A program made the position numbers and the translations under genes. From the IMG/VR virus record IMGVR_UViG_2531839477_000013: 10,774 nucleotides of DNA, one strand, 5' to 3'. The DNA is from a virus. Lineage: Duplodnaviria; Heunggongvirae; Uroviricota; Caudoviricetes. Of the stretch, positions 305 through 10,774 are shown one piece after another; within the stretch, counting starts at the first letter, position 1, and every line of letters begins with the position of its first letter. Below the pieces are notes generated by a model. The model had not been told where the DNA came from. It did no database searches and was given only the letters and a program-made list of their open reading frames with translations.

Positions 305-357
305 GGGCGGCAGAGCAGTCACGGAGTAAAACTGATACCGCCAAACGTCACCAGAAA
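305..357 (-). ncRNA. dicF: DicF small RNA (ftsZ-targeting sRNA of the dicB operon)
   Basis: Reverse complement of 305..357 reads TTTCTGGTGACGTTTGGCGGTATCAGTTTTACTCCGTGACTGCTCTGCCGCCC followed by a T5 run (plus 300-304 is A5). This is the 53-nt DicF sequence as I recall it, in the expected place between ydfC and dicB. Exact processed ends not verifiable here. Confidence 0.85.
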
Positions 358-1400: not shown

Positions 1401-1808
1401 TTATTTTATTGATTTATTTTTACGCGCTTTAAGCATTTCTTCGAAGAGTTTGTTGAAGTTTTCTACTCTTGCGCGCATTTCAGACAGCAAGGCTTCCTGC
1501 TCGGAAGATGGAAGAGCATCGAATAATTCGATCAATTCTTTGTGGTTGGGAGTTAGCTCTGTTTCCACATGAAGTTCTTGTGCAGGCACTGGTGCCTTGT
1601 CTTCGTCACCAAACATTAGCCATGTAGGTGAGCACTTCAGAGCATCCGCTAAAGCAAACAATCGTTTTCCGACTGGCTGGGTTTCGTCTCTTTCCCATTG
1701 TGAAATTGTGACGTGAGCAACTCCAGCGAGGCGCGCGGCTTCTCGTTGTGTTAAGCGTAATTCTTTTCGTCGCGCCAGAACTCGCTGGCCCAGGGTTCTT
1801 GTATCCAT
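1401..1808 (-). CDS. dicA: DicA-type prophage repressor (HTH, cI/C2-like), 135 aa
   Basis: 135-aa ORF with an N-terminal HTH (LTQREAARLAGVAHVTISQWERDE) and a C-terminal ...MRARVENFNKLFEEMLKARKNK, closely resembling the K-12 DicA sequence I recall. Divergent from a cro-like gene. Confidence 0.92.
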   Translation of the reverse strand: MDTRTLGQRVLARRKELRLTQREAARLAGVAHVTISQWERDETQPVGKRLFALADALKCSPTWLMFGDEDKAPVPAQELHVETELTPNHKELIELFDALPSSEQEALLSEMRARVENFNKLFEEMLKARKNKSIK

Positions 1809-2117: not shown

Positions 2118-2622
2118 ACAGGCTCGTGAGGCTCTGGATGCCTGGATATGTCGACCAGGAATGACACAGGAGCAGGCGACGATATTAATCACTGAAGCAT
2201 TCTGGGCTTTGAAAGAGCGCCCGAACATCGATGTTCAGCGTGTCACAGATGAAGGTGGCGCGGTTGATCAGCGAGCGCTTGGTGTTAATCGAGTGAAGAT
2301 ATTCGAACGCTGGAAGGCTATCGACACCAGGGATAAGCGTGAAAAGTTCACGGCGCTAGTGCCTGCGATTATGGAGGCTATCCGGATTAGTGATTTCAGG
2401 TTGTATCGTGAAATTACTGACGGAAAAAGCATCACGTGCATGATCGCCGGGTTAAACAAAGAATATGGCGATGTGGTGGAGTCCGGACTGCTTTTTGCTG
2501 ATCCTGCCGTAGTGGATCGTGAAACTGACGAACTTATAGAAAAAGCAATTGCTTTCAAGCTTGCGTATCGACAGCAATACCAACAAAAAGCTGGATGGAA
2601 TTATGAGCCTTCTTTTTGCTGA
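2101..2622 (+). CDS. YdaT/YdfX-like early prophage protein (173 aa), function unknown (cII-position gene)
   Basis: 173-aa ORF. Its ATG overlaps the dicC 3' end by 17 nt, suggesting translational coupling. Family assignment is positional and from memory only. Confidence 0.7.
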   Translation: MKITPEQAREALDAWICRPGMTQEQATILITEAFWALKERPNIDVQRVTDEGGAVDQRALGVNRVKIFERWKAIDTRDKREKFTALVPAIMEAIRISDFRLYREITDGKSITCMIAGLNKEYGDVVESGLLFADPAVVDRETDELIEKAIAFKLAYRQQYQQKAGWNYEPSFC

Positions 2623-3568
2623 ACGCCCACTGGTTATAAACACGCAGCTGGCAATGAAAATTGGCTTAAACGAAGCCATTGTTTTGCAACAACTGCACTA
2701 CTGGTTGAGAGATACCAACTCCGGCATGGAATGTGATGGTGTTCGCTGGATTTATAACACAACGGAACAATGGCTGGAACAGTTCCCATTCTGGTCAGAG
2801 TCAACGTTAAAGCGCGCGTTTGCAAGTCTGAAAACGCTGGGGCTTTTGCGTTGTGAAAAGCTCAATAAATCAAAGCGCGATATGACCAATTTCTACACGA
2901 TCAACTATGGGAGCGAACTTTTAGATGGTGGCAAATTGAGCGAATCCATCGGTTCAAAATGCGCCGCTCCATCAGGTCAAAATGACACGATGGAAGAGGT
3001 CAAAATGAAACGCTCCATTGGTTCAAAACGACCCAATGTCATCGGGTCAAAATGGCCTGATGATCTTACAGAGAATACAACAGAGATTACTACAGAGAAT
3101 AAAAACACTTTTCGTCCGGAAGCTTCGCAACCGGACCCGCAGACGACTGAACAGGATTCTTTAACCCGGAACTCCGACGCGGTTGTGTTTAGTGCGAAAA
3201 AACGCCAGTGGGGTAGCAGGGAGGATTTGGCGTGTGCGCAGTGGATCTGGGGGCGGATCGTGGGTCTCTACGAACAGGCAGCCAGTGATGATGGCGAGAT
3301 CATGCGACCAAAAGAGCCTAACTGGACTGCCTGGGCCAATGACGTGCGCACAATGCGGATGCTGGATGGCAGAAGCCACAGACAAATTTGCGAAATGTTT
3401 GGTCGGGTTCAGCGAGATCCATTCTGGGTAAAAAACATCATGAGCCCGTCAAAGCTCCGCGAAAAATGGGACGAACTGGTCATCCGCCTGGGACGTTCAC
3501 CTGTACAGCGTTGTGTTAATCATATTTCTGAACCGGATACAGAAATTCCGCCTGGTTTCAGAGGATAA
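2603..3568 (+). CDS. Phage replication initiator: N-terminal winged-helix DNA-binding domain, iteron-containing linker, DnaT-like (primosomal protein I) C-terminal domain
   Basis: The ATG at 2603 (MSLLFAERPLVINTQLAMKIGLNEAIVLQQLHYWL...) is the first ATG; the track ORF starts at an upstream TTG at 2549. The C-terminus ...VNHISEPDTEIPPGFRG closely matches the E. coli DnaT C-terminus (...VSEPDSQIPPGFRG) as I recall it. Five iterons lie inside the gene, as in lambda O. Confidence 0.85.
   Translation: MSLLFAERPLVINTQLAMKIGLNEAIVLQQLHYWLRDTNSGMECDGVRWIYNTTEQWLEQFPFWSESTLKRAFASLKTLGLLRCEKLNKSKRDMTNFYTINYGSELLDGGKLSESIGSKCAAPSGQNDTMEEVKMKRSIGSKRPNVIGSKWPDDLTENTTEITTENKNTFRPEASQPDPQTTEQDSLTRNSDAVVFSAKKRQWGSREDLACAQWIWGRIVGLYEQAASDDGEIMRPKEPNWTAWANDVRTMRMLDGRSHRQICEMFGRVQRDPFWVKNIMSPSKLREKWDELVIRLGRSPVQRCVNHISEPDTEIPPGFRG
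2945..3054 (+). repeat. Replication origin iterons: five direct repeats at 23-24 bp spacing (2945, 2968, 2991, 3014, 3038), core GGT(T)CAAAA(T/C)G, followed by an A-rich tract with three ACAGAGA repeats (3068-3098)
   Basis: Repeats read directly: tccatcggttcaaaatg, tccatcaggtcaaaatg, tggaagaggtcaaaatg, tccattggttcaaaacg, gtcatcgggtcaaaatg. Their placement in the linker-coding region of the initiator gene parallels ori-lambda inside O. Confidence 0.75.
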
Positions 3569-3608: not shown

Positions 3609-4031
3609 GTGGCAAAAGTTTTTACACAAGAAGAGCGGGAAAAAATTAAATGGCAGGTGGTGGAACTCGTGCGCCAGAGCGGCCGTGAGACGTTACGGCA
3701 ACTGGAAGCTAAAACAGGTGCGACTAGATATCTGATGAGCGTTCTTGCCAGAGAGCTGGTAGCCAGTGGCGATGTATACAACTCCGGCTACGGGTTATTC
3801 CCCTCTGAACAGGCGCGTAAGGACTGGCAAAACGCCCGCAAAAAACTCTCGAGGGCAAAGGTGAAGAAACCTGCTGTGGTTGATCCGGACCTTATCTGGT
3901 CATCACCTGACGGAGAAATACGTCGCTACGACAGTCGCCTAAACATAATCTGTCGCGAGTGCCGGAAGAGCGAAGTTATGCAGCGCATACTGGCTTTCTA
4001 TCAGGGTAATTTTCAGGACGTGGCGCAGTGA
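3609..4031 (+). CDS. Hypothetical prophage protein (140 aa)
   Basis: GTG start at 3609 with a strong Shine-Dalgarno (AAGGGGGA) 5-12 nt upstream. The stop overlaps the next start (GTGA). No family recognised. Confidence 0.65.
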   Translation: MAKVFTQEEREKIKWQVVELVRQSGRETLRQLEAKTGATRYLMSVLARELVASGDVYNSGYGLFPSEQARKDWQNARKKLSRAKVKKPAVVDPDLIWSSPDGEIRRYDSRLNIICRECRKSEVMQRILAFYQGNFQDVAQ

Positions 4032-4474
4032 GTGCACCGGCAACCATTCTTGATATGTGCTGTGGCAGCCGCATGTTCTGGTTCGATAAGTCTGACAAAC
4101 GGGCGATATTCAGCGATATCAGAAAAGAAGGATACACATTACGCAATGGGAGACGCTTGATTATCAGCCCTGACATTATCGCAGATTTTCGTGCATTATC
4201 ATTTGCAGACGCATCTTTTTCGATGGTTGTATTAGACCCTCCGCATCTTGAGCGTGTTGGTGATAACGCCTGGATGGGAAAGAAATATGGACGGCTGAAT
4301 AAAGATGCCTGGCGTGATGATTTGCGACAGAGATTTAAAGAAGCTTTTCGGGTGTTGAGGTCGCACGGCGTTCTGATTTTTTAATGGAATGAAACGCAAA
4401 TACCGGTAAGCCAGATTCTGGCACTGACAGATAGAAAGCCTGTTATCTGTCAACGAACAGGGAAAAAACGATAA
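4028..4474 (+). pseudogene. SAM-dependent methyltransferase-like gene interrupted by an in-frame TAA at 4382-4384
   Basis: N-terminal motif-I-like ILDMCCGSRMF and motif-IV-like VLDPPH. After the TAA the same frame continues as WNETQIPVSQILALTDRKPVICQRTGKKR to a second TAA at 4472-4474. The track reports only 4028..4384. Confidence 0.55.
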
Positions 4475-4646
4475 AACCCACTGGATTATTTTTATGAAAG
4501 AGGCATCCAGTGAGTAGATTCGTAAGGTTACAGATACGTATATCTGAATAATTAAATTCAGTTCTGTAAATAAAACTTAATCCTTAACCGGATGGATTTC
4601 TGCACCCTCAGAACATCAGGAGGCCGCCCGAAAGGGCGGTAGTGAA

Positions 4647-4757
4647 ATGCGAAAGTTCAAAATTATTATTGAAACGGAAATAGCTGGTGGAGATTTTGAG
4701 GATGTATTCGAAGTGGACGATGACGCAACACCTGATGAAATTCATGACGGAGCATAA
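4647..4757 (+). CDS. Candidate small acidic protein (36 aa): MRKFKIIIETEIAGGDFEDVFEVDDDATPDEIHDGA
   Basis: Below the ORF-track cutoff. An AGGAGG at 4618-4623 is separated from the ATG by a GC-rich GAAA-tetraloop hairpin (4624-4639). Coding status unproven. Confidence 0.3.
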   Translation: MRKFKIIIETEIAGGDFEDVFEVDDDATPDEIHDGA

Positions 4758-4806
4758 GAAATTTTCTTTAACTACTGCAATTACTCATACCACGAAATAA
4801 AAGACG

Positions 4807-4998
4807 ATGAGGAAGAACAAAGTGGCTGATTTTTGTTCAGCTAAATATAACATCAGTTTTGAAGAGCGGGATGAACTATTAATGGACTATGGTGAATTAC
4901 GCGGTGGAAGTGCTGTTGATGTCGAATCCTAGCGTGATGACTATGAAGCGGGAAAAACTCCGGTCGAAGCATATTGTGATGAGTGGGGCGATGAATGA
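4807..4998 (+). pseudogene. Candidate small acidic protein ORF with an in-frame TAG at 4930-4932: MRKNKVADFCSAKYNISFEERDELLMDYGELRGGSAVDVES(*)RDDYEAGKTPVEAYCDEWGDE
   Basis: Frame read by hand. The terminal TGA (4996-4998) overlaps the ATG of the next ORF (ATGA). Weak Shine-Dalgarno. Confidence 0.3.
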
Positions 4999-5249
4999 GC
5001 GAGATTAATTATCAGGAAGGGCATGAAACGGCGGGGCAAGCAAAACCAGTGGCATGGCGATATCGCTACGTGAAAAAAGCGTTACGGACTTTCAGGGGAA
5101 GTAGTGGTCTGGTGACTGGAAATATGTACCGAAAAAAGAGGATTGTAACGACAGGCCGAACTATCAAATTCAGGCCTTATTCACTGCCTCACCAGTCCCG
5201 GTTACATCAGAAGAACTGGTTAAAGCTGTGCACTTTTATGAACAACTAA
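4995..5249 (+). CDS. Hypothetical ORF (84 aa), possibly a frameshifted remnant
   Basis: Track ORF. An overlapping alternative frame (5054-5281) reads like protein (WSGDWKYVPKKEDCNDRPNYQIQALFTASPVPVTSEELVKAVHFYEQLKRENPPTSGN) but is itself broken by a TAG at 5102-5104. Confidence 0.3.
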   Translation: MSEINYQEGHETAGQAKPVAWRYRYVKKALRTFRGSSGLVTGNMYRKKRIVTTGRTIKFRPYSLPHQSRLHQKNWLKLCTFMNN

Positions 5250-5535
5250 AACGCGAAAATCCACCAACATCCGGCAACTAGATTAATGGATTAACTATGT
5301 CGGTTAAACGACCAGCCAACTGAAAAAGCGGAAACCTGATTACAGGTTGCCAGATAAGGCAATGAGCTACCTGGCGCGGAACGGACTGATAAGTATGGGG
5401 AATGTTTTACGATGAACCTTTAGACTAAAGAGTTTGTAACGCTATGTAAGTGATTTTTTCTGGTTTAGATATTTATATGTCCGGCCAAATTGAGGTGTGT
5501 TTAAATGTAATTGCACATTGATTGTAGGAGGAATA

Positions 5536-5715
5536 ATGAAAAACGCATTGCAGTTTTTGTTTGTTGCGTTCTGGTTGTTCGCATCATGTATGCCCATCAT
5601 CTTCACAGCAAGGTATATGGAAAAAGTTGATGTTTTGATATTAATATTTGGATATATAAATGCCCTTTTTTTAGGGGTGTTCATGGCGGTCATGTGCATT
5701 GAATACTGGCGGTAA
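5536..5715 (+). CDS. Small membrane protein, two predicted transmembrane helices (59 aa)
   Basis: ATG at 5536 preceded by GTAGGAGG (5524-5531). Product MKNALQFLFVAFWLFASCMPIIFTARYMEKVDVLILIFGYINALFLGVFMAVMCIEYWR. The track ORF 5497..5715 begins upstream. Sits in markedly AT-rich DNA. Confidence 0.5.
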   Translation: MKNALQFLFVAFWLFASCMPIIFTARYMEKVDVLILIFGYINALFLGVFMAVMCIEYWR

Positions 5716-6049
5716 ATACAGCGAACTCCATTGGTTTAGTTGGATATTTACTGTGCTGGACAAAAACGGTTTGCGGGGAAATCTTAGTTAAGTAGAATGA
5801 CTGCGGGTGCTTGAGGCTATCTGCCTCGGGCATGGACACCAACGGCAGATAGAGAAAAGCCCCAGTTAACATTACGCGTCCTGCAAGACGCTTAACATTA
5901 ATCTGAGGCCAATTTCATGCTAGACACATGTAGGTTAGCCTCTTACGTGCCGAAAGGCACGGAGAAGCAGGCTATTGTTAACACCAAGCTGTAATGTCCC
6001 CTTTGAACCATTCAAAAATGTCCCCAGACAATTCTCTGGGGGATTTTTC

Positions 6050-7390
6050 ATGATCAAAGAGACTGTTACGATGAGTCATAAGGAACTCCACCGACTTCAG
6101 ATTATTCAGGAGTCAATTAATCGACATATTACTCAGGAACAAGCTGCGGCACGCATTGGCATTTCTATTCGGCAGGTTAAACGTCTGGTGCAACGGTATA
6201 GAAATGAAGGGCCTTCTGGTCTGGTTTCCCACCGACGTGGAAAGCGTCCTAATAATTCCTTTTCTACTGAATTCAGAGCAACAGTAATTTCACTCCTCAA
6301 AGGCCGTTACGCTGATTTTGGACCTACGTTTGCGTGCGAAAAATTGCGCGAGATACACGGTTTATCTTTATCCGTTGAAACTCTCAGAAAGTGGATGATA
6401 GAAGAGGGGTTATGGCGTGAACGCCGTCGTAAAATTGCCCGTATATATCAACGCCGCATGCGACGACCATCTTATGGTGAACTGATCCAGATTGATGGCT
6501 CACCTCATGACTGGTTTGAAAATCGAGGCCCCAGATGTACACTGATCGTTTTCATTGATGATGCCACCAGTGCGTTGATGGCGTTGCGTTTTGTGCCTGC
6601 TGAAACAACCCGGGCTTACATGGAAACCCTCCGGGGTTACCTTAATGATCATGGCGTACCGCTCGCTCTCTACTCTGATAGACACAGTATATTCAGGGTA
6701 AATAACCCAGAGCGGGAAGGTGAGCTGACCCAGTTCACTCGTGCGATAAAGACACTGGGCATCGAGCCAATCCATGCCAACAGCCCGCAGGCAAAAGGGC
6801 GGGTAGAGCGCGCCAATCAGACACTACAGGACAGGCTGGTCAAAGAAATGCGGCTTCAGAATATCAGTGATATTGAAACAGCAAATGCATGGTTGCCGAC
6901 CTTTATTGAAGCCTATAACAACCGGTTCGCTACGTCGCCTCGTACTACTGATAATGCTCATCTTGATGTGCACCATTCTGAAGAGGAACTGGGTTATATC
7001 TTCAGCCTACAGGCGAAGCGCGTTCTGTCTAAAAATCTCACTTTCCAGTACAAAAGCAGTGCGTTTCAGGTACGCAGTGAGAGCCGGGGATATCGACTTA
7101 GGCATTCGGTTGTTACTGTATGCGAGAACTTTGACGGTGAAATTAACGTTCTGTATGACGGGAAAGCGCTGGGCTGGGAAAAGTATGTTGATGGCCCGGA
7201 GCCTATACCACTGGATGATGAAAAGAGTGTCCATGAACGAGTGGATAATGCCCGTATTGATTTACGCTCAAAATACTATGTTAAACCTAAAGCTGACCAT
7301 CCCTGGCTTACGCGCCGAACGCAAAGTCATCAGCAAGTTAAGCCCCCGAAGTTACCTAAAAAGAAGCCTGATCCCGATAAAAAAGATTGA
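6050..7390 (+). CDS. DDE transposase-like protein of the rve (integrase core) type, N-terminal HTH, 446 aa; IS481/ISNCY-like
   Basis: First in-frame ATG at 6050 after a GGGGGA Shine-Dalgarno (track ORF starts at TTG 5975). Catalytic-looking residues IQIDGS, LYSDRHS, GRVERANQTL. Probably the full-length counterpart of the intK fragment I recall in K-12 Qin. Element boundaries not identified. Confidence 0.82.
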   Translation: MIKETVTMSHKELHRLQIIQESINRHITQEQAAARIGISIRQVKRLVQRYRNEGPSGLVSHRRGKRPNNSFSTEFRATVISLLKGRYADFGPTFACEKLREIHGLSLSVETLRKWMIEEGLWRERRRKIARIYQRRMRRPSYGELIQIDGSPHDWFENRGPRCTLIVFIDDATSALMALRFVPAETTRAYMETLRGYLNDHGVPLALYSDRHSIFRVNNPEREGELTQFTRAIKTLGIEPIHANSPQAKGRVERANQTLQDRLVKEMRLQNISDIETANAWLPTFIEAYNNRFATSPRTTDNAHLDVHHSEEELGYIFSLQAKRVLSKNLTFQYKSSAFQVRSESRGYRLRHSVVTVCENFDGEINVLYDGKALGWEKYVDGPEPIPLDDEKSVHERVDNARIDLRSKYYVKPKADHPWLTRRTQSHQQVKPPKLPKKKPDPDKKD

Positions 7391-7826: not shown

Positions 7827-8159
7827 TTAGACGTAAATATCAATGGTGCCAGCGGTATTTGTATCGTCTTTTTTCTCTTCTTTTTTATCAGGCTGAACTG
7901 TCGCGTCTTCATTCTTTTTCTCTGCCTGCTGCCTTAACAACTGCTCCAGTTGAGCCCAGAGGCTTTCAATTTGCTTCTGTACCAATGCAGCCATTTCTTT
8001 TTTCTGCTGTGTCGTCATCCCCTCTTCCGATGAGATTTTCCCAAGCTTTTCAGTCAGCACCTGAATTTGTCTTGTGATTTTGGCTATTTCTGATGTTCCT
8101 TCCGGGGCGGAGTTGTTTGAAATAACGGTTGAGGTATTTCCCTGAATTGTGACAGACAT
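7827..8159 (-). CDS. flxA: FlxA (sigma-28 dependent prophage protein), 110 aa
   Basis: 110-aa ORF MSVTIQGNTSTVISNNSAPEGTSEIAKITRQIQ..., matching FlxA as I recall it. AAGGAG Shine-Dalgarno 7 nt upstream of the ATG. Confidence 0.9.
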   Translation of the reverse strand: MSVTIQGNTSTVISNNSAPEGTSEIAKITRQIQVLTEKLGKISSEEGMTTQQKKEMAALVQKQIESLWAQLEQLLRQQAEKKNEDATVQPDKKEEKKDDTNTAGTIDIYV

Positions 8160-8691: not shown

Positions 8692-8931
8692 ATGGGTAGC
8701 ATTAACCTGCGTATTGACGATGAACTTAAAGCGCGTTCTTACGCCGCGCTTGAAAAAATGGGTGTAACTCCTTCTGAAGCGCTTCGTCTCATGCTCGAGT
8801 ATATCGCTGACAATGAACGCTTGCCGTTCAAACAGACACTCCTGAGTGATGAAGATGCTGAACTTGTGGAGATAGTGAAAGAACGGCTTCGTAATCCTAA
8901 GCCAGTACGTGTGACGCTGGATGAACTCTGA
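8692..8931 (+). CDS. relB: RelB antitoxin (79 aa)
   Basis: Product MGSINLRIDDELKARSYAALEKMGVTPSEALRLMLEYIADNERLPFKQTLLSDEDAELVEIVKERLRNPKPVRVTLDEL is near-identical to K-12 RelB as I recall it. Its stop overlaps the relE start by 1 nt. Confidence 0.95.
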   Translation: MGSINLRIDDELKARSYAALEKMGVTPSEALRLMLEYIADNERLPFKQTLLSDEDAELVEIVKERLRNPKPVRVTLDEL

Positions 8932-9218
8932 TGGCGTATTTTCTGGATTTTGACGAGCGGGCACTAAAGGAATGGCGAAAGCTGGGCTCGACGGTACGTG
9001 AACAGTTGAAAAAGAAGCTGGTTGAAGTACTTGAGTCACCCCGGATTGAAGCAAACAAGCTCCGTGGTATGCCTGATTGTTACAAGATTAAGCTCCGGTC
9101 TTCAGGCTATCGCCTTGTATACCAGGTTATAGACGAGAAAGTTGTCGTTTTCGTGATTTCTGTTGGGAAAAGAGAACGCTCGGAAGTATATAGCGAGGCG
9201 GTCAAACGCATTCTCTGA
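8931..9218 (+). CDS. relE: RelE toxin (mRNA interferase), 95 aa
   Basis: Product MAYFLDFDERALKEWRKLGSTVREQLKKKLVEVLESPRIEANKLRGMPDCYKIKLRSSGYRLVYQVIDEKVVVFVISVGKRERSEVYSEAVKRIL matches RelE as I recall it. Confidence 0.95.
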   Translation: MAYFLDFDERALKEWRKLGSTVREQLKKKLVEVLESPRIEANKLRGMPDCYKIKLRSSGYRLVYQVIDEKVVVFVISVGKRERSEVYSEAVKRIL

Positions 9219-9289
9219 ACCAAAGCATGACATCTCTGTTTCGCACCGAAGGTGACACTTCTGCTTTGCGTTGACAGGAGAAGCAGGCT

Positions 9290-9445
9290 ATGAAGCAGCA
9301 AAAGGCGATGTTAATCGCCCTGATCGTCATCTGTTTAACCGTCATAGTGACGGCACTGGTAACGAGGAAAGACCTCTGCGAGGTACGAATCCGAACCGGC
9401 CAGACGGAGGTCGCTGTCTTCACAGCTTACGAACCTGAGGAGTAA
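9290..9445 (+). CDS. hokD: HokD (RelF) Hok-family membrane toxin, 51 aa, below the ORF-track cutoff
   Basis: Hand translation gives MKQQKAMLIALIVICLTVIVTALVTRKDLCEVRIRTGQTEVAVFTAYEPEE with TAA at 9443-9445. A typical Hok sequence, in the expected place after relE. Confidence 0.9.
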   Translation: MKQQKAMLIALIVICLTVIVTALVTRKDLCEVRIRTGQTEVAVFTAYEPEE

Positions 9446-9467: not shown

Positions 9468-10774
9468 CATAAGCGCTAACTTAAGGGTTGTGGTATTACG
9501 CCTGATATGATTTAACGTGCCGATGAATTACTCTCACGATAACTGGTCAGCAATTCTGGCCCATATTGGTAAGCCCGAAGAACTGGATACTTCGGCACGT
9601 AATGCCGGGGCTCTAACCCGCCGCCGCGAAATTCGTGATGCTGCAACTCTGCTACGTCTGGGGCTGGCTTACGGCCCCGGGGGGATGTCATTACGTGAAG
9701 TCACTGCATGGGCTCAGCTCCATGACGTTGCAACATTATCTGACGTGGCTCTCCTGAAGCGGCTGCGGAATGCCGCCGACTGGTTTGGCATACTTGCCGC
9801 ACAAACACTTGCTGTACGCGCCGCAGTTACGGGTTGTACAAGCGGAAAGAGATTGCGTCTTGTCGATGGAACAGCAATCAGTGCGCCCGGGGGCGGCAGC
9901 GCTGAATGGCGACTACATATGGGATATGATCCTCATACCTGTCAGTTCACTGATTTTGAGCTAACCGACAGCAGAGACGCTGAACGGCTGGACCGATTTG
10001 CGCAAACGGCAGACGAGATACGCATTGCTGACCGGGGATTCGGTTCGCGTCCCGAATGTATCCGCTCACTTGCTTTTGGAGAAGCTGATTATATCGTCCG
10101 GGTTCACTGGCGAGGATTGCGCTGGTTAACTGCAGAAGGAATGCGCTTTGACATGATGGGTTTTCTGCGCGGGCTGGATTGCGGTAAGAACGGTGAAACC
10201 ACTGTAATGATAGGCAATTCAGGTAATAAAAAAGCCGGAGCTCCCTTTCCGGCACGTCTCATTGCCGTATCACTTCCTCCCGAAAAAGCATTAATCAGTA
10301 AAACCCGACTGCTCAGCGAGAATCGTCGAAAAGGACGAGTAGTTCAGGCGGAAACGCTGGAAGCAGCGGGCCATGTGCTATTGCTAACATCATTACCGGA
10401 AGATGAATATTCAGCAGAGCAAGTGGCTGATTGTTACCGTCTGCGATGGCAAATTGAACTGGCTTTTAAGCGGCTCAAAAGTTTGCTGCACCTGGATGCT
10501 TTGCGTGCAAAGGAACCTGAACTCGCGAAAGCGTGGATATTTGCTAATCTACTCGCCGCATTTTTAATTGACGACATAATCCAGCCATCGCTGGATTTCC
10601 CCCCCAGAAGTGCCGGATCCGAAAAGAAGAACTAACTCGTTGTGGAGAATAACAAAAATGGTCATCTGGAGCTTACAGGTGGCCATTCGTGGGACAGTAT
10701 CCCTGACAGCCTACAAAACGCAATTGAAGAACGCGAGGCATCGTCTTAACGAGGCACCGAGGCGTCGCATTCTT
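9468..10774 (+). mobile_element. IS186 (IS4 family), left end at 9468; right end lies about 30 bp beyond the window
   Basis: The sequence from CATAAGCGCTAACTTAAGGGTTG (9468-) matches the IS186 left terminus as I recall it. The window ends inside the element just before the expected right inverted repeat. Inserted 22 bp after the hokD stop in a GC-rich site (GGCGGGGGAGAATCC). Confidence 0.88.
9523..10635 (+). CDS. insL: IS186 transposase (IS4 family, DDE), 370 aa
   Basis: ATG at 9523 (track ORF starts at GTG 9517). Product MNYSHDNWSAILAHIGKPEELD... with the IS4-family Y-x2-R-x3-E-x6-K motif (YRLRWQIELAFKRLK). Confidence 0.9.
   Translation: MNYSHDNWSAILAHIGKPEELDTSARNAGALTRRREIRDAATLLRLGLAYGPGGMSLREVTAWAQLHDVATLSDVALLKRLRNAADWFGILAAQTLAVRAAVTGCTSGKRLRLVDGTAISAPGGGSAEWRLHMGYDPHTCQFTDFELTDSRDAERLDRFAQTADEIRIADRGFGSRPECIRSLAFGEADYIVRVHWRGLRWLTAEGMRFDMMGFLRGLDCGKNGETTVMIGNSGNKKAGAPFPARLIAVSLPPEKALISKTRLLSENRRKGRVVQAETLEAAGHVLLLTSLPEDEYSAEQVADCYRLRWQIELAFKRLKSLLHLDALRAKEPELAKAWIFANLLAAFLIDDIIQPSLDFPPRSAGSEKKN

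Follow-up and report, generated by a model that had tools for sequence, protein, structure and literature searches.

Probable remnant of a decayed accessory operon in a Qin/DicA-type cryptic prophage of Escherichia coli

A run of small acidic reading frames beside a phage methyltransferase raises the question of whether a working function is encoded or whether the genes are decaying. The run lies in a 10,774-nucleotide stretch (the window) of IMG/VR virus record IMGVR_UViG_2531839477_000013. A preliminary description had presented positions 4647-5281 as a candidate anti-restriction cluster that included tandem paralogues, with pseudogenisation of the whole segment as the alternative. The alternative is supported and was understated, as the methyltransferase and the three genes that follow it, here termed A, B, and C, all carry disabling lesions. 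The preferred reading, held at a probability of about 0.88, sees in the segment what is left of a short operon: three accessory genes, unrelated to one another, that have been killed, as has the upstream methyltransferase, in a cryptic prophage of the Qin/DicA type. The finding is one of ordinary cryptic-prophage decay, not of a working anti-restriction cluster.

The prophage and its surroundings

The window is part of an old, defective lambdoid cryptic prophage of the Qin/DicA type in E. coli. It carries the DicF sRNA (305-356, minus strand, an RNA family match), ydfC/B/A in that order, a DicA-like repressor (1401-1808, minus strand), and a cro-like gene, followed by a YdaT-family gene (2101-2622), an O-like replication gene (2549-3568), and a DUF977 gene (3609-4031). 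Beyond the decayed segment lie a sok/hok-leader RNA (5805-5976, plus strand; a complete match to Rfam RF01794 at 104 bits), an IS1202-family (ISEsa1-like) transposase (5975-7390), flxA (7827-8159, minus strand), relB-relE-hokD (8692-9445, with an intact hokD at 9290-9445 after relBE), and IS186 (9517-10635). DicF, flxA, relB-relE-hokD, and IS186 surround the region in a K-12 Qin-like arrangement. Given these flanks, the window looks like a less-deleted relative of K-12 Qin in which the cro, YdaT-like, O-like, and DUF977 early genes are still intact.

The segment itself is common. Of 5426 complete E. coli genomes, 2559 match positions 4400-5500 (1101 nt) used as a query, with an identity of 99% or more in 499 records and of 100% in one strain. 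In that strain hokD stands directly after the sok/hok leader. In the window no hok reading frame follows the leader at 5805-5976, which ends where the first listed transposase ORF begins. This hok locus therefore appears to have been cut by an IS insertion or rearrangement.

Lesions in four consecutive genes

The first gene of the segment is a small phage DNA methyltransferase of the phrog_954 type with a DPPH motif (4028..4517, plus strand), present here as a pseudogene. The intact reference, a 160-residue protein of a Klebsiella phage (L008:2489-2971), reads ...VLIFKWNETQ...GKNDKTHWIIF, whereas the window reads ...VLIF*WNETQ...GKKR* in frame 1 (asterisks are stops), with GKNDKTHWIIF picked up again in frame 2. 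Two lesions are seen. AAA has become TAA at 4382-4384, a stop that the preliminary description had placed correctly, and one extra A in the A-run at 4463-4468 shifts the frame. The PGAP annotation of the strain without differences from the window over 4400-5500 labels the gene 'frameshifted; internal stop'.

Gene A (4647..4829, plus strand) belongs to DUF7167 and phrog_1997 and encodes 60 residues when intact. An ORF at 4647-4757 had been noticed and is indeed present in the sequence, but the TAA at 4755-4757 is not its natural end, since orthologues have AAA (Lys37) at this position. Further changes in the window copy are G11E, E35G, E54D, and N59S. With the stop repaired, the protein matches PF23768 at 45.3 bits across profile positions 1-60 (cutoff 24.4) and phrog_1997 at an E-value of 1.2e-28, and it is thus a member of the family. 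The intact Rac copy scores 55.1 bits against PF23768, while the 36-residue fragment really encoded in the window reaches 24.1 bits, just under the cutoff. Members of PF23768 (DUF7167) and PHROG 1997 are, like gene A, about 60 residues long and borne by phages or prophages of Escherichia, Shigella, and Klebsiella; the window copy differs in stopping at codon 37. Intact 60-residue copies occur in the Rac locus (L001:2602-2784) and in L004, L006, L011, and L012, and PGAP describes the gene in strain SOI121 as 'DUF7167 family protein, internal stop'. The conserved antisense ORF at 4608-4745 (45 residues) was considered and rejected as a gene, being a by-product of the GAN-rich acidic coding strand.

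Gene B (4822..4998, plus strand) encodes 58 residues when intact and corresponds to the C-terminal part of phrog_519. It had been described as an ORF beginning at ATG 4807 and resembling gene A in an 'MRK-x-K' start. The frame from 4807 does end at TGA 4996-4998 and does contain a TAG at 4930-4932. Its start, however, was misplaced. ATG 4807 is internal to gene A and lacks a Shine-Dalgarno sequence, and the Rac, 606R7, and ArgO145 copies have AAG in its place. The conserved start codon, ATG where the gene is intact and GTG in the window, is found at 4822, 8 nt after GAGG. This weakened start is one of three lesions, the others being Trp16 to Arg and Trp37 TGG to TAG at 4930-4932; in the family alignment W37 is invariant and W16 nearly so. 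Gene B matches phrog_519 over positions 76-137 (E 4.5e-23), the repaired window protein at 50.2 bits and the intact Rac copy at 83.2 bits, and no Pfam or NCBIfam model covers it. An exhaustive profile search gathers 74 cluster representatives, mostly stand-alone proteins of 50-65 residues, sharing the motif F.EW..L...A...GGSAAD.DAWR.DY.AGKTP.EAW.DEWG. PHROG 519 is an unnamed family of unknown function that two papers mention, apparently only in passing; gene B belongs to it, but as a pseudogene in the window.

Gene C (4995..5415, plus strand) is a heavily decayed pseudogene of phrog_660, encoding 171 residues when intact. It was observed earlier that 4995-5281 can be read as protein in two frames and has a TAG at 5102-5104; this holds, but the gene does not end at 5281 and goes on to TGA 5413-5415. 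Alignment to the intact 171-residue copy L011:2950-3465, and to L001 and L002, reveals a 1-nt deletion after 5079 (GG to G, beside the A6 run 5073-5078), the TAG at 5102-5104 where the intact copy has ATG, a 90-nt deletion between 5267 and 5268, a TAG at 5279-5281 where the intact copy has CAG, and a 4-nt deletion between 5312 and 5313. PGAP labels this gene, too, 'frameshifted; internal stop'. Intact forms have 171 residues in strain EC7518 and 119 in phage vB_EcoM-606R7 (L004:3424-3783), and intact gene C matches phrog_660 over positions 34-193 (E 8e-73). PHROG 660 is an unnamed family of unknown function that has no Pfam or NCBIfam model, and the window copy is a pseudogene member of it. 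The TAG at 5102 is common to the window and the Rac copy. In the adjacent A-run, the following G is lost in the window, Rac has A8, and L002 and L005 are intact. A shared stop beside lineage-specific slippage points to stepwise, independent decay.

These corrections change the gene model to four dead genes instead of two live acidic paralogues. The nonsense codons reported for three consecutive genes are real; with the TAA at 4755-4757 recognised as another, the count of consecutive broken genes rises to four. Paralogy of A and B finds no backing: BLASTP gives no alignment at E≤100, hhalign returns a probability of 0.09%, and the predicted folds differ. AlphaFold models A as beta-beta-alpha-beta-alpha with an acidic C-terminal helix (pLDDT 78) and B as a three-helix bundle (pLDDT 78.6). 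The GG...D.V..DD...TP.E pattern that had linked them is a chance likeness, with a GG-to-TP spacing of 14 residues in one and 18 in the other and different structural contexts. The claim of a strongly acidic run stands for intact A (net charge -15, 33% D+E) and intact B (net charge -12, 28% D+E) but not for gene C, which is not acidic (net charge -3).

In all four genes the lesions fall where intact orthologues have sense codons or in-frame positions, and the full-length products of A, B, C, and the methyltransferase cannot be made here. The 36-residue N-terminal fragments may conceivably keep a residual role. In strains nearly identical to the window, RefSeq/PGAP lists three of the four as pseudogenes, namely the methyltransferase, the DUF7167 gene, and gene C. 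Public annotation already records the pseudogene status, and catalogues give the families as 'unknown function'.

One could suspect the stops of being artefacts of sequencing or assembly, or of being read through, which would leave the genes functional here. Nothing specific favours this beyond the A6 runs at 5073-5078 and 4463-4468, which are error-prone in some technologies. The same stops are present in the independently sequenced strains SW071618 and SOI121, Shigella flexneri SFBU0723, and phage PhiR42_1, and the lesions include deletions of 90 nt and 4 nt besides two kinds of stop (TAA and TAG). For readthrough, E. coli has no natural ochre or amber system able to rescue four genes. Functional copies of these four genes in the window are therefore scarcely credible.

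Intact copies, their neighbours and their leader

Intact relatives indicate what the segment once was. Genes A and B overlap by 8 nt (GTGGCTGA) and B and C by 4 nt (ATGA), and these overlapping junctions suggest that A, B, and C are translationally coupled. Gene A is also preceded by a distinctive leader (4619..4639, plus strand), consisting of a Shine-Dalgarno GGAGG at 4619-4623 and a hairpin CCGCCC-GAAA-GGGCGG at 4624-4639. The Shine-Dalgarno sequence lies 23 nt from ATG 4647 in linear distance and 7 nt when the hairpin is folded out. The hairpin is stable, has a GNRA loop, and forms part of the minimum-free-energy fold. It is kept in five of five copies, with one stem mismatch in 606R7, and it accompanies the cassette into ArgO145, where the sequence farther upstream differs. 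The leader alone (about 4564-4647) also stands before other cassettes in other phages. No T run follows the hairpin and a terminator scan makes no call on it; an Rfam scan of 4400-5500 finds no RNA family even at E≤1. T4 gene 38 is an example of a split ribosome-binding site, and the gene A leader may, by analogy, be such an arrangement.

The neighbourhood of the intact genes varies. The intact A-B pair occurs at the Rac prophage position and in the ea region of the Stx phage ArgO145, by an ead/Ea22-like gene. Upstream of A/B, Rac, 606R7, and EC7518 have a Zn-ribbon protein, and ArgO145 and strain 06_3044 a 70-residue protein; in strain C8 an ead/Ea22-like protein lies upstream, and in the Klebsiella phage an unrelated protein. 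Downstream of A, strain C8 has a TraR/DksA-family gene and the Klebsiella phage an unrelated 70-residue protein. That A can precede genes other than B indicates independent cassettes of a mosaic accessory region. Adjacency to a methyltransferase, earlier read as a clue to function, is peculiar to this lineage: in the Klebsiella and O157 elements the methyltransferase is followed by other genes, not A/B. The O157 methyltransferase copy is a pseudogene as well.

This organisation resembles the nin and ea/b2 accessory cassettes of lambda. They share the position of A-B-C, after the replication genes and before hok/Q, or in the ea region, as well as mosaic neighbours and overlapping genes with coupled starts. 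No named lambda nin or ea family is matched by A, B, or C in Pfam, NCBIfam, or PHROG, however, and the likeness is one of position and evolutionary behaviour only.

The preliminary description had counted on these frames being conserved as coding sequence in related prophages, and for the intact copies this is the case. Intact A differs between L001 and L011 by 8 synonymous and 2 non-synonymous changes (dN/dS 0.04, Nei-Gojobori), and intact B between L011 and L009 by 9 and 2 (dN/dS 0.04, same method). Across intact A and B alleles dN/dS is about 0.04-0.06, each value being based on few substitutions, about 10 per comparison. As their divergence is mostly synonymous, A and B are real genes elsewhere. 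Between the window copy of gene A and its nearest intact allele lie the stop, 2 synonymous changes, and 4 non-synonymous changes; copies in the window clade differ by 0 synonymous and 1-2 non-synonymous changes. In gene B, the loss of W16 and of the ATG start, with the drop in the phrog_519 score from 83 to 50 bits, fits the same relaxed constraint. These small counts are consistent with purifying selection on the live copies and its relaxation in the window lineage.

Both kinds of allele are widespread. Probes of 61 nt centred on the stops, which by themselves do not tell TAG from TGG, match the window-type allele family in 506-672 and the intact Rac-type family in 1221-1278 of 5426 complete genomes. 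All window-type copies that were read (L002, L003, L005, and L010) carry the stops, which are shared by further E. coli strains, Shigella flexneri, and the ECOR13 prophage PhiR42_1. More than a thousand complete E. coli genomes, as well as Stx phages, carry the intact versions, WP_001224662.1 (DUF7167) and WP_000753060.1, which are conserved under purifying selection yet uncharacterised. A literature search returned nothing on DUF7167, the WP_ accessions, or PhiR42.

Gene A has no breadth outside enterics, as a scan of one genome per species found only two loci, one of them on a 3-kb contig (L009, JAIHTM010000290.1) binned as a 'Collinsella sp.' MAG. The gene A cassette of this contig is 99% identical to the E. 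coli sequence, and the contig is likely a binning contaminant. A further odd host attribution is that of 'Actinobacillus phage vB_Apl-pPE4' (PP818812.1), which is 89.5% identical to the prophage segment over 700 nt.

Readings of the decay

The proposal of an anti-restriction function sees anti-restriction or DNA-mimic factors in the small acidic proteins, and an anti-defence island in their combination with the methyltransferase. The acidity of A (33% D+E) and B (28%) is comparable to that of T7 Ocr (29%), and this acidity is all that A and B have in common with DNA mimics such as Ocr and ArdA. Searches of Pfam, NCBIfam, PHROGs, and PDB sequences give no match to Ocr (PF08684), ArdA (PF07275), or KlcA/ArdB even with permissive E-values, and PADLOC, NCBIfam, and PDB sequence profiles return nothing meaningful. 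In the fold test, Ocr, ArdA, KlcA, and other known DNA mimics are not among the matches listed. A Foldseek comparison of model A with viral predicted structures gives no match at E≤0.001, all listed matches being uncharacterised or unnamed. Besides the lack of a sequence or profile match to any anti-restriction family, every component in the window, methyltransferase included, is a pseudogene, the linkage of A/B to the methyltransferase is not conserved, and A sometimes precedes genes other than B, which argues against a fixed functional pair. An anti-defence island is thus very improbable, and the lead, which was based on acidity and a chance motif, is removed.

Under the preferred reading of a decayed operon, lambdoid phages would carry an accessory operon, comprising the DUF7167 gene A, the three-helix gene B, and the phrog_660 gene C, between the replication genes and the hok/Q-antiterminator region. 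In a resident defective prophage these genes would sit in a delayed-early operon kept silent by the DicA-like repressor, and silent genes of no use to the host would not be maintained. Inactivation would then have come through point nonsense mutations, homopolymer slippage, and deletions, with amino-acid changes continuing to accrue afterwards. Neutral decay is the likely mechanism. 'Grounded' prophages, Qin among them, reportedly lose genes by point mutation, slippage, deletion, and IS insertion.

Alternatively, inactivation may have been selected, with intact A and/or B harmful to the lysogen through leaky toxicity or as a trigger of abortive infection. The listed lesions all fall within 4028-5415, while the early genes farther upstream (cro, ydaT-like, O-like, and DUF977), spanning 2.2 kb, are intact. 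Codon 37 of gene B has also become a stop repeatedly, as TAG in the window and 606R7, TGA in L016, and TAA in L015, and many frameshifted B variants exist. The sequence backgrounds of these stops vary: TCC-TAG in the window type, GCA-TAG in 606R7 (L004:3359), GCG-TGA in L016, and GCA-TAA in L015, whose downstream sequence has also diverged. Public data hold many further independent inactivations of gene B, including TAG, TGA, and TAA at codon 37 and several frameshifts. Some window-type alleles have CAG (Gln) at codon 37 ('VESQ'; P0099 and P0103).

Selection for loss is nevertheless unlikely. By the same probes, more genomes carry intact A/B (1221-1278 of 5426) than the broken allele, and with a dN/dS of about 0.05 these genes are not generally deleterious. 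The W37 codon TGG is one transition from two different stop codons. A stop at W16 leaves an ORF too short to call, so that protein databases reveal only the W37 events. Breakage of gene C and the methyltransferase extends to Rac and O157 copies, as general decay predicts. The recurrent stop at codon 37 is therefore probably a product of mutational bias and ascertainment. Recoding or selection at this codon was rejected as the main reading, as the stops differ, TGG is stop-prone, and shorter truncations go unannotated. In the window, the TAG at 4930 may have arisen by deamination of 5-methylcytosine on the bottom strand of a Dcm site, for which, in the context TCC-TAG, a change from CCTGG to CCTAG is the expected one; no window-type allele with 'VESW' was seen, however, and some read CAG at this codon.

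As to what the intact proteins do, A and B may, as a best guess, be small acidic products of early infection that bind to a protein of the host or of a competitor. Their size, charge, and genome position, together with a weak predicted fold resemblance of A to small phage inhibitors (T7 Gp2, T4 Dmd, and small Acr proteins), suggest such a role. In a more specific version, the products of the intact A cassette, with its hairpin leader, and of gene B would inhibit a host protein as uncharacterised small acidic factors, and the knock-outs of B would reflect a carriage cost; this version is unlikely. If it were true, the target would perhaps be a defence or DNA-handling enzyme, the core and acidic tail of A would recall T7 Gp2 and small Acr proteins, and the window would hold a fossil of such a system.

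One further reading frame lies at 5536-5715 (plus strand) and encodes a hydrophobic protein of 59 residues (MKNALQFLFVAFWLFASCMPIIF...LILIFGYINALFLGVFMAVMCIEYWR). It has no Pfam or PHROG match, is missing from the RefSeq feature tables of L001 and L003, and is absent from strain EC7518. A strong AGGAGG (5526-5531) stands 4 nt before its ATG, the product probably has two membrane helices, and the Rac copy (L001:3398-3616) is near-identical, with one A-to-V change.
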